28,026 bases of DNA from Pseudomonadota bacterium (GCA_039799345.1 JBDLSS010000163.1:1-28026), one strand, 5' to 3'; positions 3,200 through 27,279 are shown, counted from the first letter of the stretch. Notes: generated from the letters alone by a model not told the origin. Program-made: numbers and translations.

Positions 3200-3781
3200 C
3201 ATTATTGTGATTTTCTAACTTCTTCGAGAAAGATAACGTTTTCCTCACTAAACGACTGACTTACTGTCTTAACGTATTGTTAAATCGCTCAATATGATTA
3301 GTCAGTCCTACTGCTTTATGGTGTTTACTGGGGAGCACTTTCTTATACGCTTCCCAAAGGCGACTCCTAAAACCTCTCGTGAATCCCTATCCAAAGCTAG
3401 CCATATCTACACTTTCTCTTTAGCGTTTCCTACAAATGACCACATTTCATCGCATTCTAAGCACAACTTCCCTTTTTTTACAGGCTGTGGTTCTAGGCGT
3501 TGTTTCTCATACAAACGGTTTACATAAGCTTGTAGTCACGTCCCCGAGATTCCTGTCACACGGGCTATACCGCTGAGGGGTAGCTTTTCTTTTAGCAACT
3601 TATCTATTTGCGCCCATGTTTCTTGGTTTATATATTTTTTGGTAGGATGTTCTAGAAAACGGCGACCACACTCACGACATTTGTAGTTTTGTGTGCCTGA
3701 GCGAGTTTTTCCATATTTGACGATGTGCGTTGCTTTACAGTTAGGGCAAGTCAGCATTTTAGCTTCTCCTCTATAATCACC
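3200..3781 (-). mobile_element. Degenerate IS1-family element (transposase pseudogene, right end missing)
   Basis: InsA-like Zn finger/HTH ORF 3757..3536 (CPNC...CREC, IARVTG). Reading past TGA gives LQAYVN...CDEMWSFVG...*IWLALDRDSREVLG, then after a deletion/frameshift YKKVLPSKHHKAVG-LTNHIERFNNTLRQ*VSRLVRKTLSFSKKLENH (IS1 InsB-like). Candidate left end GGTGATTATAG at 3781. Confidence 0.88.
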
Positions 3782-3866
3782 ACTTTTCTGATTTTAATAT
3801 CACTGCTTCTTTAGGACTACCAATTATTTAAATCTAAAAAAAATTAGAAATATTAGCGAATTTATT

Positions 3867-3910
3867 TGTCTGAATCAGGATTTACAGGATTATTAGAATT
3901 AAGCAGGATA
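3867..3910 (+). repeat. Solo arm of the TGTCTGAA(T/C)C 9-bp-unit palindromic element family
   Basis: TGTCTGAATC-AGGATTTAC-AGGATTATT-AGAATTAAG-CAGGATA; close to the reverse complement of 25168-25211. Confidence 0.75.
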
Positions 3911-3957
3911 AGCCATTAATATAATAGAAAATTTGATACTTTTAGCCAAATTCGCGC

Positions 3958-3977
3958 CGCTGGAGCGTGGGAATGAG
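3958..3977. repeat. Partial REP-like motif CGCTGGAGCGTGGGAATGAG
   Basis: Resembles one arm of CCCACGCT...AGCGTGGGAA-type intergenic palindromes (recalled); no partner arm seen. Confidence 0.35.
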
Positions 3978-3983
3978 AAAAAA

Positions 3984-4310
3984 TTATTTAAAAGAAAAAA
4001 TTCCACACCACTGTTTTTCACAAGGAATGCCATCATTATTCCCATCCATTTTTGTGTTAGGACAATTTCTTAAGAAAAACGTGGCTTCTTCACAAGAAGT
4101 CATGTGAGAACAGTGTGTTCTACCATCACATTTATAAACTTTCCCTGTCGTTGATGTTTGATTTGCAGGGGTTGTAGGGATTACGCGATTTACAGGGGCT
4201 GGATTAATTTTTTTATAAACATAGAAACCTAACGGAATCATTAGGATCATGACTATTAGGTTAGTCAACCAATAACCTTTAATCATTTTATTTGAACGAT
4301 AATTATTCAT
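3984..4310 (-). CDS. Membrane-anchored Excalibur calcium-binding domain protein
   Basis: N-terminal TM helix; C-terminal CDGRTHCSHMTSCEEA...CPNTKMDGNNDGIPCE motif. Confidence 0.85.
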   Translation of the reverse strand: MNNYRSNKMIKGYWLTNLIVMILMIPLGFYVYKKINPAPVNRVIPTTPANQTSTTGKVYKCDGRTHCSHMTSCEEATFFLRNCPNTKMDGNNDGIPCEKQWCGIFSFK

Positions 4311-4352
4311 GTAATATCACACATCCTAATTTCTAAGGTATCACCAAAGTTT

Positions 4353-4376
4353 AAGGGGCAGTTTTCACCGCCCCTC
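4353..4376 (-). terminator. Probable intrinsic terminator hairpin after ilvC
   Basis: Minus strand GAGGGGCGGT-GAAA-ACTGCCCCTT, 14 nt past the ilvC stop; the U-tract is weak. Confidence 0.6.
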
Positions 4377-4390
4377 ATTCGACTTAAAAC

Positions 4391-5500
<1,110 letters not shown>

Positions 5501-8909: not shown

Positions 8910-10823
8910 TTACTCCGCTACAGTAAACCGCAGCGGCTCATTTTGATTAAATACCAACTTCAGTGTTTGTGGAATCAAATAACCCACATAGACCGTGTAA
9001 TTGCCTGTAAATCCTTGAACATTCCCATCGAACACCGCAATTTTTTCTTCAGCATTCAAAGCCATCCTCACTTCGGCAGCCTTCAAATTTGCTAATTGAC
9101 CATCCCACGCTGTCCACGTTTGATTATTCCGAACAAACCACTGTCCTGCATAATTTGCCACAATGACCACATAAACAGTTCGTCCAACATCAGCCGCATC
9201 ACTACTCACATTTGTTGATACGTTAATCGACTGATTACGCTTAATGACTAGATTATTGCCTTGCTGCGTTCCACTGCTCACCAAGGGGGTAAAACTGGCA
9301 GTGCTGCCACGACTAATAGGTGTTTGCGCGCTTAAATCAAAAGCCCCACTGTTAAATGAACGCATCGCAAATGCACCAATATCGCATTGTGTACGTTTTA
9401 CTCCACGCTGATCGGTGGTTGGGCAATTTGTACCGCCATTAATAGCAGGACTGTTTGCTAACAATGCCAAAGTAGCACTCGCCCCCCCATTTTCATTTAA
9501 ACTTGCAAGCAAAGGATCAAGCACGCGACTGTTTGCCACAACTTTGACATCTTTAGGGTCTTGGGTGGATGGTGCGGGGAACTCGAGATTATTGCCCCCA
9601 TCTTTCAACGATGCGCCAACCTGCCAATTAATATTCCAAGGATTATCACCCTTGTTATTGCTGACAATGCTGTTACGCAGCGTGACCTTATCAGCATTTC
9701 CCCAAAATGCGCCCCCCATAAATCCTGCATAATTATTCGCAAGGGTCAAATTTGTAAAACTGCCCTCCGATTGGGTCGAATATAAAATTGCACCCCCCAA
9801 TCCTGAACCTGCACTTTCTTCTGCACGGTTATTATAAAAAGTGCTATTCAATAAACGGGTGGGTGTGGTTTCACCAATCCACAATCCACCGCCTTGACTA
9901 TAAGCGCGATTATTAGCAAACAGTACATTTTCAATCGTTAAATCCGCATTACCAACGCGGAGACCACCGCCCAAAGCATCCCCATTGGAACTTTTAAGCA
10001 CGGTGTTATCGGTAATGGCAGAATTATCAATTATAATTTTGTCGGGAGGATAGCCGAAAAGAAATAAGCCGCCCCCCTGTCCTGCCCCTTTGTTATTGCG
10101 GAATTGGCTGTGAGAAATTTGAATTGTGCCGCCCGTGCTGTCATTAGGGGCAGATGCACCATCTACATAAATAGCACCACCATAACCGCGCGTATCCCCT
10201 GCATTACTGCCCCCGGGTGTTGAATCATTATTGAGAAAAACCGAGCGTGTCACCGTCAGATTCCCCAACAAATGGTTGATTGCACCACCATTAATGCCGC
10301 GATTATTACGAAATAAGCTATCTGTCACGACCAGCGAGCCTAAACTTTTGGTCGCAATTGCACCGCCGCCACGCTCTTGATTACCCGCAGTGCCGTCATT
10401 ATTTTCAAAAATGCAATTGAATACGCTGGCAGTATTAAAATTTCCGAAATAAATACCGCTCCCAGAACCATCACTGCCTGTTTGTTGTCCATTTTTTAGC
10501 GTGAGATTTTTCAGGGTCACTTTGAGGTTGTTGTCACTGCGTAAGATGCGCGTGCGCTTGCCGCCGTCTAAAGTGATTAATCCCCCTTGTTGCGTGCCGC
10601 CGCCATCAATAAGCGTGTCTTTACTGATTAATAATTCACTGTTAATGCTAATAGTTGCGGGCGCATTGCCACAATTAAAACTTAATGTGCCGCCGATTGC
10701 GAATGCCGCACGTAACGCAGTTTCAGTGCAACTTGTCGCCGTACCTGTTCCAATCACCGCATCTGCCCATGTCAAAGGGCTGAATAGCATTAGCGTTAAA
10801 AGTATCCATTGTCTAAGAAACAT
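8910..10823 (-). CDS. Secreted right-handed beta-helix (POMP-repeat / choice-of-anchor-Q-like) surface protein
   Basis: Sec signal (MFLRQWILL...TWA|D) after a GGAGG RBS at ATG 10823; repeated GGAI/GGG and FxxN motifs; DPLLASL...SPAINGG...DQRG...DIGAF module; ~150-aa beta-rich C-terminal domain. Confidence 0.8.
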   Translation of the reverse strand: MFLRQWILLTLMLFSPLTWADAVIGTGTATSCTETALRAAFAIGGTLSFNCGNAPATISINSELLISKDTLIDGGGTQQGGLITLDGGKRTRILRSDNNLKVTLKNLTLKNGQQTGSDGSGSGIYFGNFNTASVFNCIFENNDGTAGNQERGGGAIATKSLGSLVVTDSLFRNNRGINGGAINHLLGNLTVTRSVFLNNDSTPGGSNAGDTRGYGGAIYVDGASAPNDSTGGTIQISHSQFRNNKGAGQGGGLFLFGYPPDKIIIDNSAITDNTVLKSSNGDALGGGLRVGNADLTIENVLFANNRAYSQGGGLWIGETTPTRLLNSTFYNNRAEESAGSGLGGAILYSTQSEGSFTNLTLANNYAGFMGGAFWGNADKVTLRNSIVSNNKGDNPWNINWQVGASLKDGGNNLEFPAPSTQDPKDVKVVANSRVLDPLLASLNENGGASATLALLANSPAINGGTNCPTTDQRGVKRTQCDIGAFAMRSFNSGAFDLSAQTPISRGSTASFTPLVSSGTQQGNNLVIKRNQSINVSTNVSSDAADVGRTVYVVIVANYAGQWFVRNNQTWTAWDGQLANLKAAEVRMALNAEEKIAVFDGNVQGFTGNYTVYVGYLIPQTLKLVFNQNEPLRFTVAE

Positions 10824-10898
10824 GTTTTCCTCCATCTCATTTGAACAACGCTTTAATAAGCCTAGCATAAGTTGTGAAGGGAGGAGTTTCTGATGTAT

Positions 10899-13046
10899 TC
10901 ATTGAGAACTACGTGCCACCCGTCCACTACTCAACGCCTGAATCACCGCGTCTTTCGGACCATCTGCCACAATTTGCCCGTTGTCGACCACGATTAAACG
11001 ATCCACCAAGCTTAACAATGAGGTGCGATGCGTGATTAACAATAAAGTTTTGCCTTCCAAATACGGCAACAAGCGCGTTTTAAATTGCTCTTCGCTACTA
11101 TTATCCATCGCATTGCTAGGTTCATCCATCAACAAAATCGGGGGGTTATGCAACAAGGCTCGCGCCAACGCAATCGCTTGCCGTTGCCCGCCCGACAAAC
11201 CTTCACCGCGTTCCCCAATTGGCAAATCAAAACCCAAAGGATGTTGGTTGACGAACTCGTCTACGCCCGCCAAATGTGCCGCCTGCACTAAAGCCGCATC
11301 GTCCAAATACGGCGCACCCATCACAATATTTTCCTTCACCGTGCCATAAAATAACACGCTATCCTGAGGCACATAGCCAATATTGCGGCGCAAATCCGCA
11401 GGGTCGAGCTGGCGGCTGTCGATGCCATCCAACAACACGCTGCCCTCGCCCACTTGGTACAAATTCAACAGCAATTTCGCAAGGCTACTTTTTCCCGAAG
11501 CCACGCGCCCAATAATGCCAACCCGTTCACCTGCTTGGATTTTGAAAGAAATATTTTGCAAAGTTTTCAGCGGCTGGGTGGGATATTGAAACTGCACATT
11601 TTTGAATTCGACCGCGCCCTGCAATTCGGGACGATGCACAAAATCCTGTCCTTCGGGGCGTTCCAAAGGCAAGCTCATAATGTGATTGAGTGCCTTCAAT
11701 GCCGCCCGAGATTGGTGATAACGCATCATCAAGCCTGCAACTTGCCCCAACGGAGCTAAGGCGCGTCCCGTCAAAATCGTGCTCGCAATCAACGCGCCCG
11801 TGCTCAATTCGCCCGCTTTGATTAAATACACCCCAAAAATCACGATAGCAATCGTTGCAACTTGTTGTACCAGTAACGTTAAATTCACCGCCAAAGCAGA
11901 AATCAAGCGCGAGCGTAAACTACTTTTTGCAATCTCGCCCAACAATTGTTCCCAACGCCGTTGCAACACGCCTTCCGCTTGCAGGGTTTTAATATTTTCA
12001 ATTGCAGCAAGGGCTTCCACTAACACCCCGTGCTTTTGCGCACTGGCGCGAAAACTTTGCTCGACCGCTGTACGCAGCGGAAATTGCAGCGAAAAACTAA
12101 TCAACAACACCACGGGCACGGCAAAAATCGGCACAAACACCAAATTGCCGCCAATTGCCCAAATCACTAATAAAAATAGTAAAGTAAAGGGCAAATCAAC
12201 CACGGTGGTTAAAGTTGCTGAGGTGAAAAAATCCCGAAAGCTTTCAAATTCCAATAAATGATTGGCAAATGCGCCCACAGAACGCGGATGCGCAATCAGA
12301 CGTGTGCCCATGACTTGTTCAAAAATCATGCTGGCTAAAATGATGTCGGATTTTTTACCTGCGAGATCAATAAAATAACCACGTAAGGTTCGCATCACAA
12401 ATTCAAAAGCGAACACGATACCCGCGCCAATTGCCAGCACCCACAAGGTTTCCAGCGCGTGATTAGGCACGACCCGATCATAAACATTCATCACAAACAG
12501 CGGTGAAGCAAGGGCGAATACATTAATCAATAAAGACGCGAGCAAGACTTCTAAATAAACATGCCACGACTTTGCCAGCGTGCCCCAAAACCAATTACGT
12601 GGGCGAGGAATTGCGCCTGCTTCAGAACGCGCATCAAAACGATAGGCTTGACGCACGCAAAGCGCGTAACCCGTGTACTGTTCTTGCAGGCTTGCCACGC
12701 TGATTTCAGCAAAGCCTTCGCCACTTTCAGGCTGAATAATTTGTGCAGTCGTTGGTGTGAGCTGTGCATTCAAAACGCAAGCTTGATTGTCTTTGAGTAG
12801 TAATACCGCAGGGAGTTGTAATTTAGTGAGTTTTTCTAGCGGACGCTTAATCACACGCGCACTTAAACCTGCGCGGGCGGCGGCGCGAATAAATAATTCT
12901 GGGGTTAAACCCTGTTCGGTCAGCGGTAAACCCGCATGTAAAGCTTCAGGGGAAAAAGGACGGTGATGTAGTTTAGTTAAAATCACTAAACAGTACAGCA
13001 AGGGATCATCAATACGCGGGGTTTCAAGCGGAATTGCAGTTGTCAT
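10899..13046 (-). CDS. Type I secretion permease/ATPase with N-terminal C39-like domain (LapB/LssB type)
   Basis: DDPLLYCL...EALHAGLP N-terminus, ABC membrane domain, GRVASGKS, LSGGQRQ, LLMDEP, ITHR. Start set at ATG 13046 because the longer ORF runs through tRNA-Ser. Confidence 0.93.
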   Translation of the reverse strand: MTTAIPLETPRIDDPLLYCLVILTKLHHRPFSPEALHAGLPLTEQGLTPELFIRAAARAGLSARVIKRPLEKLTKLQLPAVLLLKDNQACVLNAQLTPTTAQIIQPESGEGFAEISVASLQEQYTGYALCVRQAYRFDARSEAGAIPRPRNWFWGTLAKSWHVYLEVLLASLLINVFALASPLFVMNVYDRVVPNHALETLWVLAIGAGIVFAFEFVMRTLRGYFIDLAGKKSDIILASMIFEQVMGTRLIAHPRSVGAFANHLLEFESFRDFFTSATLTTVVDLPFTLLFLLVIWAIGGNLVFVPIFAVPVVLLISFSLQFPLRTAVEQSFRASAQKHGVLVEALAAIENIKTLQAEGVLQRRWEQLLGEIAKSSLRSRLISALAVNLTLLVQQVATIAIVIFGVYLIKAGELSTGALIASTILTGRALAPLGQVAGLMMRYHQSRAALKALNHIMSLPLERPEGQDFVHRPELQGAVEFKNVQFQYPTQPLKTLQNISFKIQAGERVGIIGRVASGKSSLAKLLLNLYQVGEGSVLLDGIDSRQLDPADLRRNIGYVPQDSVLFYGTVKENIVMGAPYLDDAALVQAAHLAGVDEFVNQHPLGFDLPIGERGEGLSGGQRQAIALARALLHNPPILLMDEPSNAMDNSSEEQFKTRLLPYLEGKTLLLITHRTSLLSLVDRLIVVDNGQIVADGPKDAVIQALSSGRVARSSQ

Positions 13047-13120
13047 GGGATTGCACGCAGCGAAAATCATGCAAGATAGCTTAGAATAAGCAACATAGAC
13101 ACGCAAGGAAAGAATAAGGC

Positions 13121-13210
13121 TGGCGGAGAGGGCGGGATTCGAACCCGCGTGGGGTTTCCCCCCAACCGATTTCGAGTCGGTGCCGTTATGACCGCTTCGA
13201 GTACCTCTCC
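13121..13210 (-). tRNA. tRNA-Ser (anticodon CGA)
   Basis: GGAGAGG/CCTCTCC acceptor stem plus GCCA, ACCGA-CT-CGA-AA-TCGGT anticodon arm, long variable arm, GGTTCGAATCC T-arm; 90 nt. Confidence 0.97.
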
Positions 13211-13276
13211 AATGCGGCATAATATAGCATTATCAACGTATTTTTAACAGCCTTTAATTAGAGAAGCGACCCCCCT

Positions 13277-14695: not shown

Positions 14696-14916
14696 AAAAT
14701 CTATTTTTAAATAGCTTAGATACGACATGATTAAAATCATAACTTATTTATTTACAATGAGTTAATCTTTTACATCGCACAAGAATACTTTCAGTAAAAT
14801 CAAACACTGATAGATTAAACTGCATAAGCCCTAAAAGTGCTTTAAAAAACGTTTGCACCAAAGACTGCTTTTAAGCACAATCTCTATATTATTTTAAAAA
14901 GTCTATCGGTCAAAAT

Positions 14917-16536: not shown

Positions 16537-16552
16537 ACTCTTTTATGTTTAG

Positions 16553-16573
16553 CCCCCTTTAGGGGGTTGGGGG
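16553..16573. repeat. Short G/C hairpin CCCCCT-TT-AGGGGG-TTGGGGG between convergent genes
   Basis: 6-bp C/G stem; could be a repeat remnant or a shared terminator. Confidence 0.35.
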
Positions 16574-16612
16574 CGCAGTTACGATTTAAATCCCTCTCGA
16601 TTTTTAATTCAA

Positions 16613-19600
16613 TCAAGCAGGCTTACTCCGCAACTGCACTTCTTTGCGCAACATGTCCCGCAATTCTTGCACCGCAGGATCACGAAATTCGATACGGTAT
16701 AAAGTCAAAATCAAATCAAATAAACGCGGAAAATATAGCCCAAGCTCCCGAAAGTCGCCATAAGAACGCCCCCGCAATAACGGCGGCAACGCTGTCCGCG
16801 CTTCCCCTTCCAAAAGCAAAGGAATCACCGTATTTTTTTCAGCCTCCGTAGCTAATAAACGTTGTGCGATTAAATCCACTTCCGCCGCCACCACACTGCC
16901 CAAATTCGAGACTTTATTTTCATATTTATCCAAATACAACGGCACGCCCACCACTACAATAAAATCGCAATGCTCAATTCGACTGATGAAACGCGACACG
17001 CTAGACCCCAGCGTTGAATTGTCCCAATCGTCTAAAATCACCTCAATGCCCGCATCCTGCATATCCATCGCCAGCTTTTTCACCCAGCGTTCCTGCGTGT
17101 CCACGCCCCAGGCATAGCTGATAAACACCAAAGGTACTTTTCCCTGCCCGCGCCCGCGCAAATAACTTTTCACCCACACCAAGGCTTTGGCATACACCGT
17201 GCGTTCCAGCGCGGAAACTTGTTCACGCTCCAAGGTTTCACGCGTCACCGCCGATAAATGTTGCTCTCCTCGCTGTGACAGAAAAGTAATTTTGCCGCCG
17301 CACTCGCCACAAAACATGAAGGCTTTTTGCGCTTTTAAACGTTTAGCGATTTCACTGCGTTCTTGATGATAATTACAAATGCTACACACTACAGGCGGAT
17401 AGCGTTGAATAACAACTTCACGCCCGCGCAGAAAACGTTCAAATAAGCCTTGAAACAGCAATTTTGTGGATTCTTGCACTTTATAAGAATAATACAGCAC
17501 AAACTCCAGCTCGCCTTCACGCTCTTCAATCTTGCGAAAGCCACAAATTTCGCCCGCGCCTAATTCATATTGCGCTTGATTATGCCATTGTTGCACCCGT
17601 AAAAAAGTGTTGGTATAACCCAATAACACCACTAACGCCGCATATAAGTTTTCAATTGCGCCCGTGACTGCATACGACATATCTTCAAAAATCGGGATTT
17701 TATCCACCGCAGGACGTTTTTGATTAATTAAGCTGGGAAAGACTAATAAACTTTCGCCGTTGTAACTTTCACGAAAACAGAGGGTATGCTCTAAAAATAG
17801 TGCGAGAGCGGCATCTAGTAACACTTCTTTTTCGGTGGGTGTCAGTTCAGATAATTCGGGTAAATCATATTCACCACGCAACACCCGTGATTCTTCCAAC
17901 GCGCCCAAACCTTTTTCATTGCGTCGCGCTTCTAAAATTAAAGAAGAGGCTAAATTACTTAATAAATCAGGTGTTAATAAAATGCTGTATTTTCCCGCAG
18001 AACCCCGTAACAAAGTGATATAGCCATGATTTGCCAGATGTTGTAGCGCAGTTAATAATTCTGCTTGGCTGAATTGCCATGATTCTTCACGTTTTTGCAA
18101 AGATTGCTGTAATTCTTCAAGATTTAATAAAGTATTTTTACGGCGTGGCTGGTCTTTTAAAGCCAATACAAATTCTTTAATGCGTTTAAACGTTAGCGTG
18201 GTCACGGTGGCGGTCATGGTGTCCCAACGCAAAGCTTGCCGCACCCGTGTTTTCAAAGCGTGCAAACCTTCGCCCGTCATTGCGCTGGAAATCAAATAGC
18301 CTTCGCTGACTTCGTGCTGCTGACAAAATGCGTCTAATTCTTCGGCGGTCAAAGTCGGTGCGCCTCGGTCACAACGCGCCCCGACTAATAAAGTACGACA
18401 GTGATTTTCTTTATTCGCGCTACCGAGCTGTCGCAACCAATATTCCACGCCTTTGAGCGGTTCTTGCTGGTGGCTGGGGTCAAATAACACAATCGCTAAA
18501 TCGACTTCGTCCAAAAATAGCGCGTGAACCAGTCGATAATCGGGTTGTCCCGCCAAATCCCATAATACGGCTTCGCATTCGGTGCCGTCGCTGCGGGTCA
18601 CTTTGAGGTCGGGAATAATCCAAAATTGTTGCCCGTGGGTGGAGGCGTGTTCTTTGAATTCGTTGTGTGCTAATCGCCAGCCTAAGCCTGTTTTGCCTAC
18701 GCCGCTGTCACCGACGAGCACAATTTTGGCGGTGGTGTAATGTACCGTTGTGGCAAGCGTGGGAACTGGGGTTGTCGGTTTGCTGAAGGATGTGCCCAAG
18801 GCGCGTAAACGACTGAATAATCCTGAAAAACTACTTTCACTGCTGGCGCGGGGCAGGGCTAATAAACGCGCGGTGTCGAGTTTCCACAGGCGAATTTCAC
18901 GATCTTTTTTGCCCAAACTTGCCAACATCGGTTCGGTGGGATGAAACGCTAAACCGCCTAACCATAATTGATGATCCGTGGGTTCTTGCAACACGGTGAG
19001 TAAACTGCAATCTTCGGTACGCCATAAACGCACGCTGTCGTCGTCGGATTTGGAGGCGAATAATTGCCCATCGCGTGAGCAGGCGAGTTTGTAAACCACG
19101 TCGGTGTGCCCTTCCAAAACCCGCGCTTGTCGCCCGGTGATGATTTCCCACACCCGAATGGTTTTATCGCTGCTCGCAGAAAAAAGTAGCGGTTGCGTGG
19201 GCGAAAATAACACGCTGAACACCATGCCTGAATGCGCTTTTAAAGTGCGTAATAATTGCCCGGTGTCGGGATGCCAGAGGCGAATCAGTTTGTCATCTGA
19301 ACCTGAGGCGAGCATGTTGCCGTCGGGTGACCATGCGACGCTGTTGACGTTGCGGGCGTGGGCATTGAGGCTGTGGCGTACTTGCCAAGTGCTGGTATCC
19401 CATAATAAAACCGTGCCATCATCCGCGCCAGAAGCCAGCAAACTGTCGTCGGGCGACCATGCCAAGGCATTAATGCTGCCTGCGTGTTGTTTCAAGCTGT
19501 GGCAAAGTATGCCCTGTTGATCCCAAATATGAATGCTTTTATCATTGCCGCCTGCCGCCAAATAGTGACCTTGTTGTGACCAGCAGGCAATGCGCGGGTA

Positions 19601-19783
19601 GCCGCTGGGGCAGGGCAGGCATTGTAATAAATTGCCTGTCGCGGTTTCCCAACACAGCAAGCTGTCGTCAAAGGAGGAGGATACCAGCACGCGCCCATCG
19701 GGAGACCAATGTAAACCATTGATGGCGTTGGTATGTCCTTCGAGGGTTTGATAAAGGCTAAAGCCTTCGGGAATAGCGGTCAT
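16613..19783 (-). CDS. WD40-repeat / Roc GTPase / COR / Zn ribbon / TIR-SEFIR multidomain (ROCO-type) protein
   Basis: Seven WD40 repeats (aa ~10-302); G1 GDSGVGKT (358-365), G3 WDLAGQ, G4-like GARCD, G5 SSAMTG; COR-like region with FPSL; CxxC-21-CxxC (800-828); TIR-like VFISYAW...WVKKLA...GIEVILDDW (885-1030). Confidence 0.85.
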   Translation of the reverse strand: MTAIPEGFSLYQTLEGHTNAINGLHWSPDGRVLVSSSFDDSLLCWETATGNLLQCLPCPSGYPRIACWSQQGHYLAAGGNDKSIHIWDQQGILCHSLKQHAGSINALAWSPDDSLLASGADDGTVLLWDTSTWQVRHSLNAHARNVNSVAWSPDGNMLASGSDDKLIRLWHPDTGQLLRTLKAHSGMVFSVLFSPTQPLLFSASSDKTIRVWEIITGRQARVLEGHTDVVYKLACSRDGQLFASKSDDDSVRLWRTEDCSLLTVLQEPTDHQLWLGGLAFHPTEPMLASLGKKDREIRLWKLDTARLLALPRASSESSFSGLFSRLRALGTSFSKPTTPVPTLATTVHYTTAKIVLVGDSGVGKTGLGWRLAHNEFKEHASTHGQQFWIIPDLKVTRSDGTECEAVLWDLAGQPDYRLVHALFLDEVDLAIVLFDPSHQQEPLKGVEYWLRQLGSANKENHCRTLLVGARCDRGAPTLTAEELDAFCQQHEVSEGYLISSAMTGEGLHALKTRVRQALRWDTMTATVTTLTFKRIKEFVLALKDQPRRKNTLLNLEELQQSLQKREESWQFSQAELLTALQHLANHGYITLLRGSAGKYSILLTPDLLSNLASSLILEARRNEKGLGALEESRVLRGEYDLPELSELTPTEKEVLLDAALALFLEHTLCFRESYNGESLLVFPSLINQKRPAVDKIPIFEDMSYAVTGAIENLYAALVVLLGYTNTFLRVQQWHNQAQYELGAGEICGFRKIEEREGELEFVLYYSYKVQESTKLLFQGLFERFLRGREVVIQRYPPVVCSICNYHQERSEIAKRLKAQKAFMFCGECGGKITFLSQRGEQHLSAVTRETLEREQVSALERTVYAKALVWVKSYLRGRGQGKVPLVFISYAWGVDTQERWVKKLAMDMQDAGIEVILDDWDNSTLGSSVSRFISRIEHCDFIVVVGVPLYLDKYENKVSNLGSVVAAEVDLIAQRLLATEAEKNTVIPLLLEGEARTALPPLLRGRSYGDFRELGLYFPRLFDLILTLYRIEFRDPAVQELRDMLRKEVQLRSKPA

Positions 19784-19969: not shown

Positions 19970-20045
<76 letters not shown>

Positions 20046-20122: not shown

Positions 20123-20220
20123 TGTCTGAACCACAATTCACACAATTAAAAGATAATTATTGTTGTGTGTGTTGTTTAATTGCGGTAATTATGTAAATTG
20201 TGTGAATTGCGGTTCAGACA
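20123..20220. repeat. Palindromic 9-bp-unit element, copy A1
   Basis: 25-bp terminal inverted repeats TGTCTGAACC(A/G)CAATTCACACAATT, 24/25 matched. Confidence 0.88.
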
Positions 20221-20229
20221 AAAAAATGC

Positions 20230-20335
20230 GTAGGTTGGGTTGGCGACCAGCTAACCCAACAAAGATACAGCATGAAAGTTAGGATTGTAGGTGATTTGGG
20301 GTTAATGTTGGGTTGCCGTTTGCAACCCAACCTAC
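20230..20335. repeat. GTAG-type REP doublet (REPIN-like), copy B1
   Basis: GTAG-GTTGGGTTGGC...CTAACCCAAC hairpin and inverted GTTGGGTTGC-CGTTT-GCAACCCAAC-CTAC hairpin. Confidence 0.88.
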
Positions 20336-20339
20336 ACGG

Positions 20340-20440
20340 CTGAACCACAATTTTCACAATTCACACAATTAAAAGATAATTATTGTTGTGTATGTTTAAT
20401 TGCGGTAATTATGCAAATTGTGTGAATTGCGGTTCAGACA
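20340..20440. repeat. Palindromic 9-bp-unit element, copy A2
   Basis: Copy of A1 (right ends 220 bp apart); left arm lacks its first three bases (TGT) and carries one extra 9-mer (ACAATTTTC). Confidence 0.88.
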
Positions 20441-20580: not shown

Positions 20581-23544
20581 CTAGGGGGGAAAAGAAACAA
20601 CACGGAAACCGATGTCGTTGTGCCTGTCGTCGCTCCCACCCGAGTAGCCGCTGCAACGAAAGGCAGAACGACAGTCATCCGCATGGTGGCCCCAAGAACC
20701 ACCGCGCAACGGGCGATTTCCATCACCATTTTCTGAACCATAAGCCGTACCATCTGCACTGGCATCTGCAAAATTACGATGCCACTCGTCTTGACACCAT
20801 TCCCACACATTACCGTGCATATCGTACAAACCAAAAGCATTGGGAGGAAATGAGCCAACGTCTACAGTTTTTCCACGACATAAGCCTTTAGGCATCCCTT
20901 CACAAGGATAATTCCCATTATAATTCACTAACTCTGGCGTAATAATGTATCCAAAGTGATATTCCGTGGTTGTTCCTGCACGACAGGCATATTCCCATTC
21001 CGCTTCACTGGGCAAACGAAACCCATTTCCCAACTTTTGACAAAATTCCTTAGCTTGTTTCCAAGTCATATTTTCCGCAGGTAAATTGTCGCCTTTAAAA
21101 TATGAAGGATTTTCACCCATCACCGCTTTATATTGCGCTTGAGTCACCGCATATTTCCCCATATAAAATGGCTGCAAATGAAAAGTTTTACCGTATATTT
21201 CCAGCTCACCTTCAGGAATATAAACCATTTCCAAAGGCACACCATTGGGTAATTTATGGGTGATTTGGCGGGCTTTACATTGACGTTTTTTCTGTTTCAA
21301 AATGGCTTCGGAAACGACTTTTTCAACCTTTTTCGTAGTTAAACCAAACCAAGCAGGTTCTTCCACAATAATTGTTTTTCGTGGTTCAACTTCTACCGTC
21401 ACAGTTTCAAAACTAAACTCAGTCTCTTGAAAATTAGTGACTTTAGCGGGTTGACTCGGACTCACTTTAGGCAGCTGTGCTGCTGCCGCTGCCAACGCAG
21501 CCGCTTGCCGCTGTTTCTCTGCCAACTCAGCCAACAAACGCGCTTTTTGCTCCTCACTTTGAATAGCTTGCGTTTGCGCCATTAAAGCTTCAATTTCAGC
21601 CGCTAAAGTCTGCGCTTGTTTCAAAGCATCCTGTTTTTCCTGAGATAAAGCTGCATTTTTCGCTTCCAAGTCTGCCAGTTTTTGCTGCAAATCCGCCTGT
21701 GCTTTTTTCTCCGCTTTTGCCTTCGCTTTAGCCGCTTTTTTAACCTCCTCCGCTGCCAACTCCTCCGCAAGCCGCTGCTTATCCAAACCCAGCGCGTTCT
21801 CAAAAAACACAATCAAATCCGCAACCGCAGGACGTTTTTCAATCTGAACCTCAACACAATCACACAGAATATGACGCACTGCTTCAGGCAAATCACGCTC
21901 CAGACAATACTCAGGTCGCTTTCCACTGTACAACTGCATCAAAGTTTTTCCATAACTAAACACATCGGTTTTAGCCGTGGGTTTACCCAGTCTTGAATCT
22001 TTCATTTCAGGCGCGGCATAATCCCAAGTGCCCGCCATTTTTAAACTCAAAGTGGAAGATTTAGAATGCGACAAAGCTTTCTGTTTCAAACTTCTGCCCA
22101 CATGCGACAGCCCAAAATCAATAATTCTGACCGTCACCCCTTCCGCAGTTTCCAGCAATAACAAATTAGACGGCTTCAAATCCAAATGCAGCACCCCACA
22201 TTCATGCGCCGCCTGCAAACCCCGCGCAAGACTCAAAGCCACCTGAAACCCCGTTTCCCCTTGCAACACCCCGCGCTGCGCTAACCACATTTCCCCATCA
22301 ATCGCATTTTCAATATATTCCGTAACTAAAAATGCTTTTTCGCCATAAAATCCTTCTGACAAGGGACGCGGCACATAACGACTGTCCACACGTTCCATCG
22401 CCAAGGCTTCGTTAAAAACTTCATGCGGTTCGCCCTGTGGCATTTGCCAAAAACACTTCAACACCACCAAACGTTTTCGAGAAAGCCATGTCGCCAAAAA
22501 CGCACAACCCATCCCGCCCGCCCCTAACAACTTCTCCAAACGGAATAATTTTGGGTCATGCAGCGCAAGCGAGCGGTCTAATTCAATGGCTTCTTGCAAA
22601 TGCTCAAATGCAATTTGATTAAATTCCGACAAGCTATAACGCAAATACACCTGAAATAAATTGAAATGCACCAAAGCCCGCTCAGAATTTTGTTGCGCGA
22701 GCTGTAATGCCTGTTCCAATAAATGCCGCGCCTCCTCCAATTCTCCCAAAGAAAACGCCGCACTGCCCGCCATCAAACAAGCTTTTGCACGCTCCGCAGG
22801 ATTCAAAGGCGTGCGTTTTAATTTACCCACCGCCTCGCCAATCAATTGCATCGATTGTGAACTGACGTGTTTAAATTCATCCTCCGCTTCAATGCGCGGC
22901 GCAATCCCTTGTGCTTCCAAACGCGAAATTAATGCTGTAACTTTTTGCAATTCGTCATAAATGCCCGCCGTTTGCAAAGCCGTTAAACGCTCATTAATAC
23001 TCGGATTGTTCCGCAAAAAGAACTCAATCGCATTGCCCAGCAAATTCTGATGCAGTAAAAACGCTTCAACTTCAGTTTCTAAAACGGTCAGCGTTTTCAA
23101 TTGTTGCAACAATAAAGCAGTCATGTTGATTTGCCCTTTTGGCGAGACCAACACCGCTAAATCCAGCTCACTGTGAATTTCAGCAGCGAATAATTGCGGC
23201 GCGAAACTCTGCAAATTGCCACACGCTTTTGCCAATTGGGTTTTAAATTGTGCAGTTTCAGGCTGGGCAGCGTGAAAAAACGTGGGCAAATAATACGAAT
23301 GCACTTGCCGTTTAAACTGCTTTTTTATTTTGGAATGGGCAACATCAAGCAGTGAAGGTGAGCAAACATTTTGGATAACGCTTAAAGCATCTTTAAACGC
23401 CAATTGATAAGCTTCTGACATTTGATAAGCGGATAAAGTCCAGTGTTTACGTAACACCGCGATAATTTTATCTTTATTACCCGTTGCCAACTCACCGAGT
23501 TCTAATAAAGACTGTAAACCTGATTCAAGTAGCGAAGAAAGCAT
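20581..23544 (-). CDS. Ser/Thr protein kinase with N-terminal helical domain and TPRs, coiled coil, and C-terminal FGE-sulfatase-type (C-type lectin fold) domain
   Basis: Hanks motifs LGAGGMG, VVLK, HLDLKPSN, IIDFG, GTWDYAAPE, DVFSYG (aa 334-585); TPR-like helices ~250-325; A/E/K/Q coiled coil 590-690; FGE motifs VTQAQY, RLPSEAEWEYACRAG, PNAFGLYDMHGNVWEWC, RGGSW...GFRVV. No signal peptide or TM seen. Confidence 0.92.
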   Translation of the reverse strand: MLSSLLESGLQSLLELGELATGNKDKIIAVLRKHWTLSAYQMSEAYQLAFKDALSVIQNVCSPSLLDVAHSKIKKQFKRQVHSYYLPTFFHAAQPETAQFKTQLAKACGNLQSFAPQLFAAEIHSELDLAVLVSPKGQINMTALLLQQLKTLTVLETEVEAFLLHQNLLGNAIEFFLRNNPSINERLTALQTAGIYDELQKVTALISRLEAQGIAPRIEAEDEFKHVSSQSMQLIGEAVGKLKRTPLNPAERAKACLMAGSAAFSLGELEEARHLLEQALQLAQQNSERALVHFNLFQVYLRYSLSEFNQIAFEHLQEAIELDRSLALHDPKLFRLEKLLGAGGMGCAFLATWLSRKRLVVLKCFWQMPQGEPHEVFNEALAMERVDSRYVPRPLSEGFYGEKAFLVTEYIENAIDGEMWLAQRGVLQGETGFQVALSLARGLQAAHECGVLHLDLKPSNLLLLETAEGVTVRIIDFGLSHVGRSLKQKALSHSKSSTLSLKMAGTWDYAAPEMKDSRLGKPTAKTDVFSYGKTLMQLYSGKRPEYCLERDLPEAVRHILCDCVEVQIEKRPAVADLIVFFENALGLDKQRLAEELAAEEVKKAAKAKAKAEKKAQADLQQKLADLEAKNAALSQEKQDALKQAQTLAAEIEALMAQTQAIQSEEQKARLLAELAEKQRQAAALAAAAAQLPKVSPSQPAKVTNFQETEFSFETVTVEVEPRKTIIVEEPAWFGLTTKKVEKVVSEAILKQKKRQCKARQITHKLPNGVPLEMVYIPEGELEIYGKTFHLQPFYMGKYAVTQAQYKAVMGENPSYFKGDNLPAENMTWKQAKEFCQKLGNGFRLPSEAEWEYACRAGTTTEYHFGYIITPELVNYNGNYPCEGMPKGLCRGKTVDVGSFPPNAFGLYDMHGNVWEWCQDEWHRNFADASADGTAYGSENGDGNRPLRGGSWGHHADDCRSAFRCSGYSGGSDDRHNDIGFRVVSFPP
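20590..20715 (-). other. Putative DGR variable repeat (VR) at the 3' end of the kinase-FGE gene
   Basis: Invariant frame RGGSW..C RSA.R..R..GFRVV with variable positions encoded by GGC CAC CAT / GAT GAC / TTT / TGC AGC GGC TAC / AGC GAC GAC / CAC AAC GAC ATC, all reachable from AAC/AAT by adenine substitution. No template repeat or RT in the window. Confidence 0.6.
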
Positions 23545-23577: not shown

Positions 23578-23730
23578 TGTCTGAACCACAATTTACTGAA
23601 TTACCCTAATTTACACAATTGAAAATAGATTGCTTGGGTTAAATTTTTCTCGTTTTGGGAATGAGGAATAATTCCTAAAAATTCTTTAATTGTGTCAATT
23701 GGGGTAATTCAGTAAATTGTGGTTCAGACA
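23578..23730. repeat. Palindromic 9-bp-unit element, copy A3 (MITE-like)
   Basis: Perfect 29-bp terminal inverted repeats TGTCTGAACCACAATTTACTGAATTACCC (23578-23606 / 23702-23730), between divergent genes. Confidence 0.92.
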
Positions 23731-23831
23731 ATTAAATTCTGACCACACTTTCACCCCAAAAATTTGGTAAGCCTGAAAAAACCTTGTATCCTGCCATCAG
23801 CCGCTTATTAATTTGTGACCGACAACAAACC

Positions 23832-26948: not shown

Positions 26949-26990
26949 AATATAACGACACTCTAACTGATACTTTTTTCTTAACATTAT

Positions 26991-27107
26991 TAGGCGTTAC
27001 GCAATGAAATCTGTAACTATTTGATTTTAATAGAAACATAATTGTGTGATGCACAATACTAACTGACTGTAAATAAAGGGAATAGCGTTTCAACTGCGTA
27101 ACTCCTA
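26991..27107. repeat. MITE-like element, copy C2
   Basis: TAGGCGTTACGCAATGAAA...GTTTCAACTGCGTAACTCCTA; 117 bp; same orientation as C1. Confidence 0.78.
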
Positions 27108-27279
27108 GAGTTTAAGGAACGTTATTTCGATTTTAGTGAGTTGTGTACTTTATTAGTCGATAACTTCAACATTATTTTCCCTCCTATCCCAAAATTTTAA
27201 ATCAATCGGGCATATCTTATAGCTGATAAAAACCATAGGTTTATAATAGAATTTTAAGTTATGTATTGATATTGTAGTT

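Follow-up and report, generated by a model that had tools for sequence, protein, structure and literature searches.

A WD40-Roc-COR-zinc ribbon-SEFIR protein of a Thiotrichaceae lineage as a candidate GTPase-switched immune sensor

ROCO proteins are known chiefly through LRRK2 and Parkinson's disease. The prokaryotic AP-GTPase(Roc)-COR proteins were described by Kaur, Iyer, Burroughs and Aravind (eLife 2021, PMC8195603) as predicted counter-invader systems, in which N-terminal repeats are joined to a C-terminal effector drawn from at least 24 kinds, TIR and caspase-like domains among them; this description is a computational prediction only. In the 2019 Roco review (PMC6337361), all prokaryotic Rocos then known were LRR-RocCOR proteins, with leucine-rich repeats (LRR) in front of the switch. 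Bound to GTP, the Roco of C. tepidum (CtRoco) is a monomer, and without nucleotide it forms a dimer; its affinity for the nucleotide is micromolar (PMC6337361). Among effectors, bSEFIR defends against phage, and the D40A mutation abolishes this defence (10.1101/2022.05.11.491447). SEFIR has been reported to deplete nicotinamide adenine dinucleotide (NAD+), giving ADP-ribose (ADPR) and nicotinamide (10.1101/2024.02.11.579819; 10.64898/2026.09.04.749371). This study addresses a gene for a 1056-residue protein that places a SEFIR domain behind a ROCO switch, found in a stretch of 28,026 nucleotides from a Pseudomonadota bacterium (GCA_039799345.1, JBDLSS010000163.1:1-28026). The stretch, called the window below, is the entire contig C163 of a 2.77-Mb metagenome-assembled genome that is 86% complete.

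We read the protein, with a probability of about 0.6, as a single-chain, NLR-like and GTPase-switched sensor of abortive infection, that is, an immune or cell-suicide protein in which a ROCO GTPase stands in place of the STAND ATPase. Its GTPase motifs are complete, the conserved residues of its SEFIR domain are kept, its effector is akin to bSEFIR, and its relatives swap the modules at both ends. A sensor-switch-effector scheme had been proposed in the initial annotation of this DNA, made from the sequence alone. It remains the best available explanation because sensors and effectors are swapped, the WD40 domain is the most variable part, and the effector is kin to bSEFIR, a defence protein reported to deplete NAD+. 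Three of its parts came out weaker, namely a changed nucleotide specificity, a match to the canonical TIR catalytic glutamate, and a defence island around the gene.

Domains of the ROCO-SEFIR protein

The reading frame is uninterrupted for all 1056 codons, and its start and stop coincide with those of a 98% identical orthologue in a same-genus genome; the gene is intact. The closest public proteins come from a Thiotrichaceae bacterium (98% identity) and from Thiomargarita species (66%). Pfam, PADLOC and predicted models agree with the initial annotation on the order WD40-Roc-COR-zinc ribbon-TIR/SEFIR, and the GARCD motif, both CxxC pairs and the LGSVVAAE968 stretch were each found at the positions given there. 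A scan for promoters and terminators gave no signal exceeding chance.

The C-terminal domain is matched by TIR_2 (E 4e-16), SEFIR (E 2e-8) and the PADLOC bSEFIR profile (E 1.3e-25). A family profile of residues 872-1056 searched against the PDB placed the SEFIR protein of B. cereus (BcSEFIR, 5Y8E/5Y8F) first with E 3e-14, followed by PdTIR, RPS4, BtTir and AbTir. The AlphaFold2 model of the domain has a predicted local distance difference test score (pLDDT) of 86.5; in Foldseek its top match was again 5y8e, with BtTir, SARM1 and AbTir also matched. The VIA Z scores of the model were 15.6 for the IL-17RA/RB/ACT1 SEFIR assembly (9ot1_E), 14.3 for BcSEFIR and 13.9 for IL-17RA, against 13.4 for the TIR domain of SARM1, 12.9 for MyD88 and 11.5 for RPS4. 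The expected TIR/SEFIR fold of the C-terminus is thus borne out by the predicted model and both structural searches, with bacterial SEFIR proteins nearest, which assigns the effector to the SEFIR branch within the TIR fold.

Throughout, conservation counts refer to an alignment of 121 homologues. Glu968, the candidate catalytic residue, is conserved in 120 of them. It pairs with the glutamate of 'GVGTE' in BcSEFIR, in both profile and sub-profile alignments, and with the glutamate of 'YEGHII' in bSEFIR of Enterococcus. In the predicted model it is part of the helix that follows strand C and precedes strand D; in TIR NADases, this helix bears the catalytic glutamate. Residue D918 is invariant (121/121) and is likely the counterpart of bSEFIR D40, a placement made by the shared 'ILD' motif and not by alignment. 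By analogy with the described SEFIR proteins, the SEFIR/TIR-type domain probably destroys NAD+.

The Enterococcus protein used for this pairing is a bSEFIR-family member (PADLOC E 4e-76), 31% identical to our protein over 162 residues (E 4e-22). Its own setting deserves a separate remark. The 308-residue protein occurs in 41 records of Enterococcus faecalis plasmids, and in the record examined (L036) its gene, at 3525-4451, lies immediately downstream of the abortive-infection pair AbiGi/AbiGii and beside recombinase genes. According to PLSDB these plasmids are mostly conjugative or mobilizable, and the record examined is non-mobilizable.

The switch begins with a Roc domain, which PF08477 (Roc) matches over residues 353-472 with 72 bits, the cut-off being 27. 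Motifs G1, G2, G3 and G5 are nearly invariant across the homologues; K364, T365, D409, G412 and Q413 are each conserved in 119-121 of 121, and the glutamine of G3 resembles Q61 of Ras. The G4 motif reads GARCD rather than N/T-K-x-D, as the initial annotation had noticed, and is aligned to the NKCD of RABA1a/Rab11. Its alanine is found in 116 homologues, its arginine and aspartate in all 121, and the A-R-x-D pattern is also present in the approximately 29-34% identical relatives on Nostoc and Calothrix plasmids. Because these residues are kept so widely and so far out, the pattern is, on the alignments, a conserved signature of the clade, neither a local oddity nor decay. The aspartate of NKxD bonds N1 and N2 of guanine and thereby sets guanine specificity. 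Since this aspartate is invariant, it can be argued that the clade still uses GTP/GDP, and A-R-x-D most likely still reads guanine through it; the suggestion that the variant alters nucleotide specificity is therefore unsupported. The missing asparagine of NKxD might reduce nucleotide affinity; septins carry AKxD yet bind GTP. A STAND core, meaning an ATPase of the NACHT, NB-ARC or AAA_16 type, was not found in the protein: only Roc, Ras and Arf families pass, and AAA_16 is a P-loop-only match at E 0.03.

The COR domain was recovered through its predicted fold, whereas sequence profiles failed to detect it. Pfam gave no COR match for residues 520-800 even at E<=10, and a family profile of 61 sequences (residues 515-872) returned only zinc-finger noise from the PDB, with no Roco or LRRK chain. 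The AlphaFold2 model of residues 515-872 (mean pLDDT 82, predicted template modelling score 0.76) starts with a pair of winged-helix units, continues with an alpha/beta unit and a small zinc ribbon, and closes with a long helix. All 21 Foldseek matches of this model at E<=0.001 were C. tepidum Roco COR/RocCOR entries or LRRK2, the best at E 1.3e-9, with alignments spanning 314-335 columns. VIA-align placed the COR of CtRoco (3dpt_B) first, with Z 12.3 over 273 residues, followed by LRRK2 (9.7) and LRRK1 (8.0). These three matches take in both halves of COR, and the remaining ones a single subdomain, either the winged helix or a KA1-like unit. The TM-scores are low (0.3-0.4) because the angle between COR-A and COR-B differs. 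Given these matches of the predicted fold, we accept the protein as a true, but divergent, Roc-COR protein.

Between COR and the C-terminal domain, the zinc ribbon noticed earlier was found with its pairs C800/C803 and C825/C828. The four cysteines are conserved in 121, 115, 121 and 120 of the 121 homologues, and Pfam zinc-ribbon matches are weak. The long helix that links the ribbon to SEFIR is weakly conserved (41%). At the other end of the protein, the seven-bladed propeller proposed for the N-terminus was confirmed by seven Pfam repeats and by splitting the region by hand, which gave seven units of 41-46 residues. This WD40 domain is the most variable of the family, with a mean pairwise identity of 38% in the full-length set, compared with 68% for Roc, 61-62% for COR and 58% for SEFIR.

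Family, module swapping and a possible mechanism

The protein is no isolated case. A word-seeded search returned at least 1,688 matches, mostly of about 1,000-1,070 residues and of the same architecture, which their sources name only 'small GTP-binding protein' or 'TIR domain-containing protein'. A HMMER profile of COR and the zinc ribbon, run over 1.84 billion representatives, gave 1,656 clusters (50% identity) with a threshold of E<=1e-3, of which 1,297 remain at E<=1e-10. SEFIR is present in 120 of the best 125 representatives having a complete COR-zinc ribbon. The gene spans at least six phyla, including Cyanobacteria, Chloroflexota, Bacteroidota, Acidobacteriota and Actinomycetota, and many of its hosts are filamentous. 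Within the order of the host it is patchy, being found in 8 of 55 genomes and 5 of 27 genera, with one copy apiece; genomes with more than one paralogue, each bearing its own effector, were not found in this order, where every positive genome gave one match. Having WD40 as sensor, a zinc ribbon, A-R-x-D as G4 and an effector of the SEFIR branch are traits of the clade and not of this locus. The architecture is not new either, and the gene is an ordinary, intact orthologue in a widespread family already predicted as a conflict system.

Both end modules are swapped in this family. In some members, SEFIR is followed by CHAT or a PNP_UDP_1 phosphorylase. At the N-terminus, one member carries TIR_2-STAND in front and another has AAA_35 replacing WD40. 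In remoter, plasmid-borne relatives SEFIR itself is exchanged for Metallophos and CHAT or for TIR_2. A plasmid of Nostoc sp. C057 (L031, 3017-7348) encodes a WD40-Roc-COR-Metallophos-CHAT protein of 1443 residues, followed by a NACHT gene, and a plasmid of Calothrix NIES-4101 (L032, 2588-6037) encodes a WD40-Roc-COR-zinc ribbon-TIR_2 protein of 1149 residues that adjoins a phage-type integrase; A-R-x-D is retained in both. Such module swapping among relatives is typical of immune receptors.

A possible course of events can be put together from these parts. The top face of the WD40 propeller would bind an invader-derived protein or another danger cue, and binding would release an autoinhibited state and shift the nucleotide state of Roc. 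A change of oligomeric state mediated by COR, relayed by COR-B, the zinc ribbon and the linker helix, would then bring SEFIR domains into pairs, and the paired domains would hydrolyse NAD+. The infected cell would arrest or die ahead of the spread of the invader, which may matter most in filamentous or colonial bacteria such as the Thiotrichaceae lineage of the host. A further claim, that this clade would be the first case of a Ras-like GTPase gating an immune receptor in bacteria, with the ROCO monomer/dimer cycle directly controlling assembly of a SEFIR NADase, seems to us quite unlikely. In the boldest version of it, a weakly binding A-R-x-D Roc would sense the GTP pool itself and fire when infection drains guanine nucleotides. 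In either version, the LRRK2-type Roc-COR switch would acquire a well-defined ancestral output and a bacterial model amenable to experiment.

If the immune reading is true, ROCO proteins would form a second, independent class of switch beside the STAND NTPases in single-chain innate immune sensors. Loss of NAD+ is easily measured, and in a bacterial member it would allow study of the coupling between an effector and the nucleotide state and dimerisation of Roc-COR, which is still an open problem for LRRK2. The value of this particular window is modest, and its context is not special.

Genomic setting and rival explanations

Several observations weigh against an immune role. A defence island did not appear around the gene: apart from generic PADLOC kinase matches in the window, no known defence neighbours were seen here or in the same-genus genome, and most relatives likewise have no such island. 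Three acidobacterial contigs (L025, L026 and the P0040 contig) share the order enolase-iPGM-[gene]-GT9-TonB-PatA_N-peptidase M28, their ROCO-SEFIR proteins being 73-77% identical to one another, and this housekeeping synteny looks like stable vertical inheritance, which is unusual for a presumed defence gene. Likewise, within the genus the gene is conserved (93% nucleotide identity) like its housekeeping neighbours (79-93%). The WD40 repeats are not homogenised, and the DNA shows no tandem repeats of the kind typical of fast-diversifying receptors. The host genome, 86% complete, holds a single copy and no second match; a phage collection gave no match to the gene; and literature searches found no paper tying Roco or Roc-COR proteins to phage defence. 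On the side of the switch, CtRoco is monomeric with GTP, and if the clade behaves alike, it is the dimer, in the GDP or empty state, that could pair the effectors. Finally, the initial annotation had put Glu968 at the catalytic position of TIR enzymes. Its presence, conservation, position on the helix alphaC and pairing within SEFIR proteins stand, but its equivalence to the catalytic glutamate of canonical TIR NADases was not demonstrated by sequence alignment. With the full profile, the alignments to PdTIR and RPS4 reach no further than strand C and end before E968, a single-sequence search with residues 930-1010 gave noise, and a sub-profile around E968 returned BcSEFIR only. The loop from strand C to alphaC is longer in the SEFIR branch, and it is because of this loop and of HMMER alignments ending early that E968 is not paired residue by residue with the catalytic glutamate of SARM1 or AbTir.

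Some of these observations also favour another account. The protein may be a non-immune signalling scaffold, a ROCO switch that regulates, for example, the envelope, the behaviour of filaments or colonies, or another housekeeping or developmental process, with SEFIR as a homotypic adaptor as in the IL-17 receptor and Act1 and not as an enzyme. The stable acidobacterial synteny, the housekeeping-like conservation within the genus and the lack of defence neighbours at this locus all agree with it, and the top structural matches include adaptor-type SEFIRs (the IL-17RA/RB/ACT1 assembly and IL-17RA). Additionally, a passage in 10.1101/2022.05.11.491447 cites an initial proposal of bacterial SEFIR as a general interaction domain. 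We nevertheless hold this account to be unlikely. A gene for a SEFIR partner turned up neither close by nor in the rest of the host's own genome, where one match was obtained with this protein as query. The glutamate in 120 of 121 homologues, together with the pattern of invariant Asp, Lys and Arg, fits an active site better than a surface. In the effector slot, relatives carry enzymes known from conflict systems instead (CHAT, Metallophos, PNP and TIR_2), and the occurrence of the gene in its order is patchy.

The surroundings of relatives bear on a second account, in which the protein generates a signal: the SEFIR/TIR fold would make an NAD+-derived messenger, a cyclic ADPR isomer or similar, for a separate effector, as in Thoeris. 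The TIR fold is common to signal-producing TIRs, with BtTir, AbTir and ThsB among the structural matches, and the second effector (CHAT or PNP) after SEFIR in some relatives means that SEFIR need not be the final killer. Against this account, no conserved adjacent partner gene occurs in any lineage examined. Conserved partner genes and consistent defence genes are both absent from the seven annotated contexts of relatives, and no neighbour is common to 12 related loci. Defence-type contexts are isolated, with CHAT and HEPN genes on one contig and a TIR-AAA_16 gene 7 kb away on another; the context of the Thiomargarita orthologue holds Cas6 and two methyltransferases. Moreover, bSEFIR, the nearest characterised relative, is a single-gene system reported to deplete NAD+, and we consider the messenger account very unlikely.

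TIR-type enzymes require self-association, and this counts also for a last and highly improbable account, a guanine-nucleotide guard without a protein ligand, in which, by analogy with CtRoco, a fall of the GTP pool in infection or starvation would take Roc from monomer to dimer and pair the SEFIR domains, while WD40 would only tune or localise the protein. The CtRoco cycle between GTP-bound monomer and empty dimer, with its micromolar affinity (PMC6337361), and the clade-wide A-R-x-D, which lacks the asparagine of NKxD and could further reduce affinity, speak for the guard, but it is pure inference as regards this clade, WD40 evolves fastest and is exchanged for other sensor modules, which fits ligand recognition, and the members without WD40 may be mere truncated contigs.

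The immune sensor remains our preferred reading, and the features on which it draws are collected in Table 1 together with those around the gene. The neighbours in the window are a tRNA-Phe gene, short palindromic repeats, a TPR-kinase-FGE-sulfatase gene, a 539-residue open reading frame that belongs to no family, a Wzy-like gene and an ABC exporter of the C39 type. The pair of ROCO gene and tRNA-Phe is conserved at 93% nucleotide identity in the same-genus genome (tRNA at L002 6721-6796), and no tRNA lies beside the orthologues in Thiomargarita or other phyla. Homology to the same-genus genome ends on one side at the stop codon and on the other about 360 bp upstream of the gene. In that genome the genes of the window are spread over five contigs at 79-93% identity, with dozens of short-repeat copies at the joints. 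We rejected the gene as a mobile cassette within the genus, as every gene of the window is scattered alike and at similar identity; synteny breaks because of genome-wide shuffling at short repeats, not because of gene mobility. Each of the short interspersed repeats has dozens of copies in this same-genus genome (G032).

Table 1. Coordinates of the ROCO-SEFIR gene, its domains and motifs, and nearby features in the window
Feature	Position (nt)	Strand	Residues	Remarks
Whole open reading frame	16613..19783	-	1056 in all	WD40-Roc-COR-zinc ribbon-helix-SEFIR order
Seven-bladed WD40 propeller, presumed sensor	18854..19756	-	10-310	Pfam WD40, 7 stretches, E 1e-62
Roc GTPase	18224..18748	-	346-520	Pfam Roc 72.2 bits, Ras 66 bits
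Roc motifs G1, G2, G3, G5			358-365, 381-384, 409-413, 499-502	GDSGVGKT, STHG, DLAGQ, SSAM
G4 motif G-A-R-C-D instead of N/T-K-x-D	18368..18382	-	468-472	pairs with Rab NKCD
COR domain	17393..18199	-	529-797	predicted fold: two winged-helix units (COR-A), then alpha/beta unit (COR-B)
Zinc ribbon CxxC(21)CxxC	17279..17392	-	798-835	Cys conservation; short strands in model
Long linker helix, zinc ribbon to SEFIR	17171..17251	-	845-871	model helix 331-357
SEFIR-type TIR-fold domain, presumed NADase effector	16694..17134	-	884-1030	Pfam, PADLOC, PDB profile, predicted fold
Glu968 codon, candidate catalytic residue in LGSVVAAE	16880..16882	-	968	helix alphaC, model helix 92-106
tRNA-Phe(GAA)	19970-20045	-		186 bp upstream of ROCO gene, same strand
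TPR-Ser/Thr kinase-FGE-sulfatase (C-type-lectin fold) gene	20581-23544	-		upstream of ROCO gene
Short interspersed, partly palindromic repeats	~14730-14855, 16537-16612, 20123-20440, 23578-23731, 26990-27110			at almost every gene boundary

A functional tie to the upstream kinase-FGE-sulfatase gene, in the manner of a split LRRK-like protein, was considered and rejected, since this adjacency is not conserved in the same-genus genome or in any other lineage. The same-genus genome is without a full-length kinase-FGE-sulfatase gene, and in the window the tRNA-Phe gene and repeats stand between the two genes. On contig C391, another open reading frame ends at its 3' side in a copy, 77% identical, of the last approximately 200 nucleotides of the kinase-FGE-sulfatase gene. 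Its mismatches are not adenine-specific, so that the copy is a paralogue and not the template of a diversity-generating retroelement. The 539-residue frame downstream of the ROCO gene has no similarity to a frame of equal length near the Thiomargarita orthologue, and the shared length is a coincidence.

Further away, ARAGORN places a tRNA-Ser(CGA) at 13121-13210 on the minus strand, where it overlaps the first approximately 100 nucleotides of the frame 10899..13220 for the C39 peptidase-ABC exporter. The true start of the exporter is probably further downstream, its C39 domain starting at residue 72. Directly downstream of the exporter, which is also on the minus strand, 8910-10868 (minus strand) encodes a protein of 652 residues that has a 'choice-of-anchor Q' domain but matches no Pfam family; the two may form a pair of exported substrate and transporter.

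Comparison with known systems

One close description is that of the AP-GTPase-COR proteins by Kaur and colleagues. Like them, our protein consists of a repeat module, Roc, COR and a variable C-terminal effector; its relatives swap effectors too, and its family is likewise enriched in filamentous or multicellular bacteria. Their description centres on N-terminal LRRs and several paralogues per genome, whereas here we find WD40 and one copy. The zinc ribbon inserted after COR, the effector of the SEFIR branch and the A-R-x-D form of G4 also set our protein apart from that description.

With the C. tepidum Roco (3DPT, 3DPU, 6HLU) and human LRRK2 and LRRK1, the protein shares Roc and, behind it, a COR with the same fold; they are its best structural matches, over 273-294 residues. 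The nucleotide-dependent cycle of CtRoco between monomer and dimer is the switch that would be expected here (PMC6337361). Unlike in CtRoco and LRRK, the COR identity is only 10-15%, the Pfam COR models miss the domain, and there is neither LRR nor kinase. The WD40 propeller is N-terminal here and C-terminal in LRRK2, and our protein adds the ARxD form of G4 and a C-terminal SEFIR.

The effector resembles bSEFIR (Millman et al. 2022; PADLOC PDLC03957) and BcSEFIR (5Y8E/5Y8F), being of the same SEFIR subtype, with the conserved aspartate and glutamate aligned in BcSEFIR and the glutamate also in the Enterococcus bSEFIR. In bSEFIR the SEFIR domain is N-terminal and followed by a C-terminal region of its own, and the rule of the authors demands this N-terminal position (10.1101/2022.05.11.491447); here SEFIR is C-terminal, behind a ROCO switch, and only positions 37-184 of the 412 in the PADLOC bSEFIR profile are matched.

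In its logic of sensor, switch and effector, the protein is like the STAND sensors (Avs/AVAST and TIR-STAND-WD40/TPR), which also combine repeat sensors with TIR or other NADase effectors, and one relative even fuses a TIR_2-STAND module before its ROCO module. Unlike in the STAND sensors, the switch is a Ras-like GTPase with COR, and the order runs from sensor through switch to effector, not from effector through switch to sensor.

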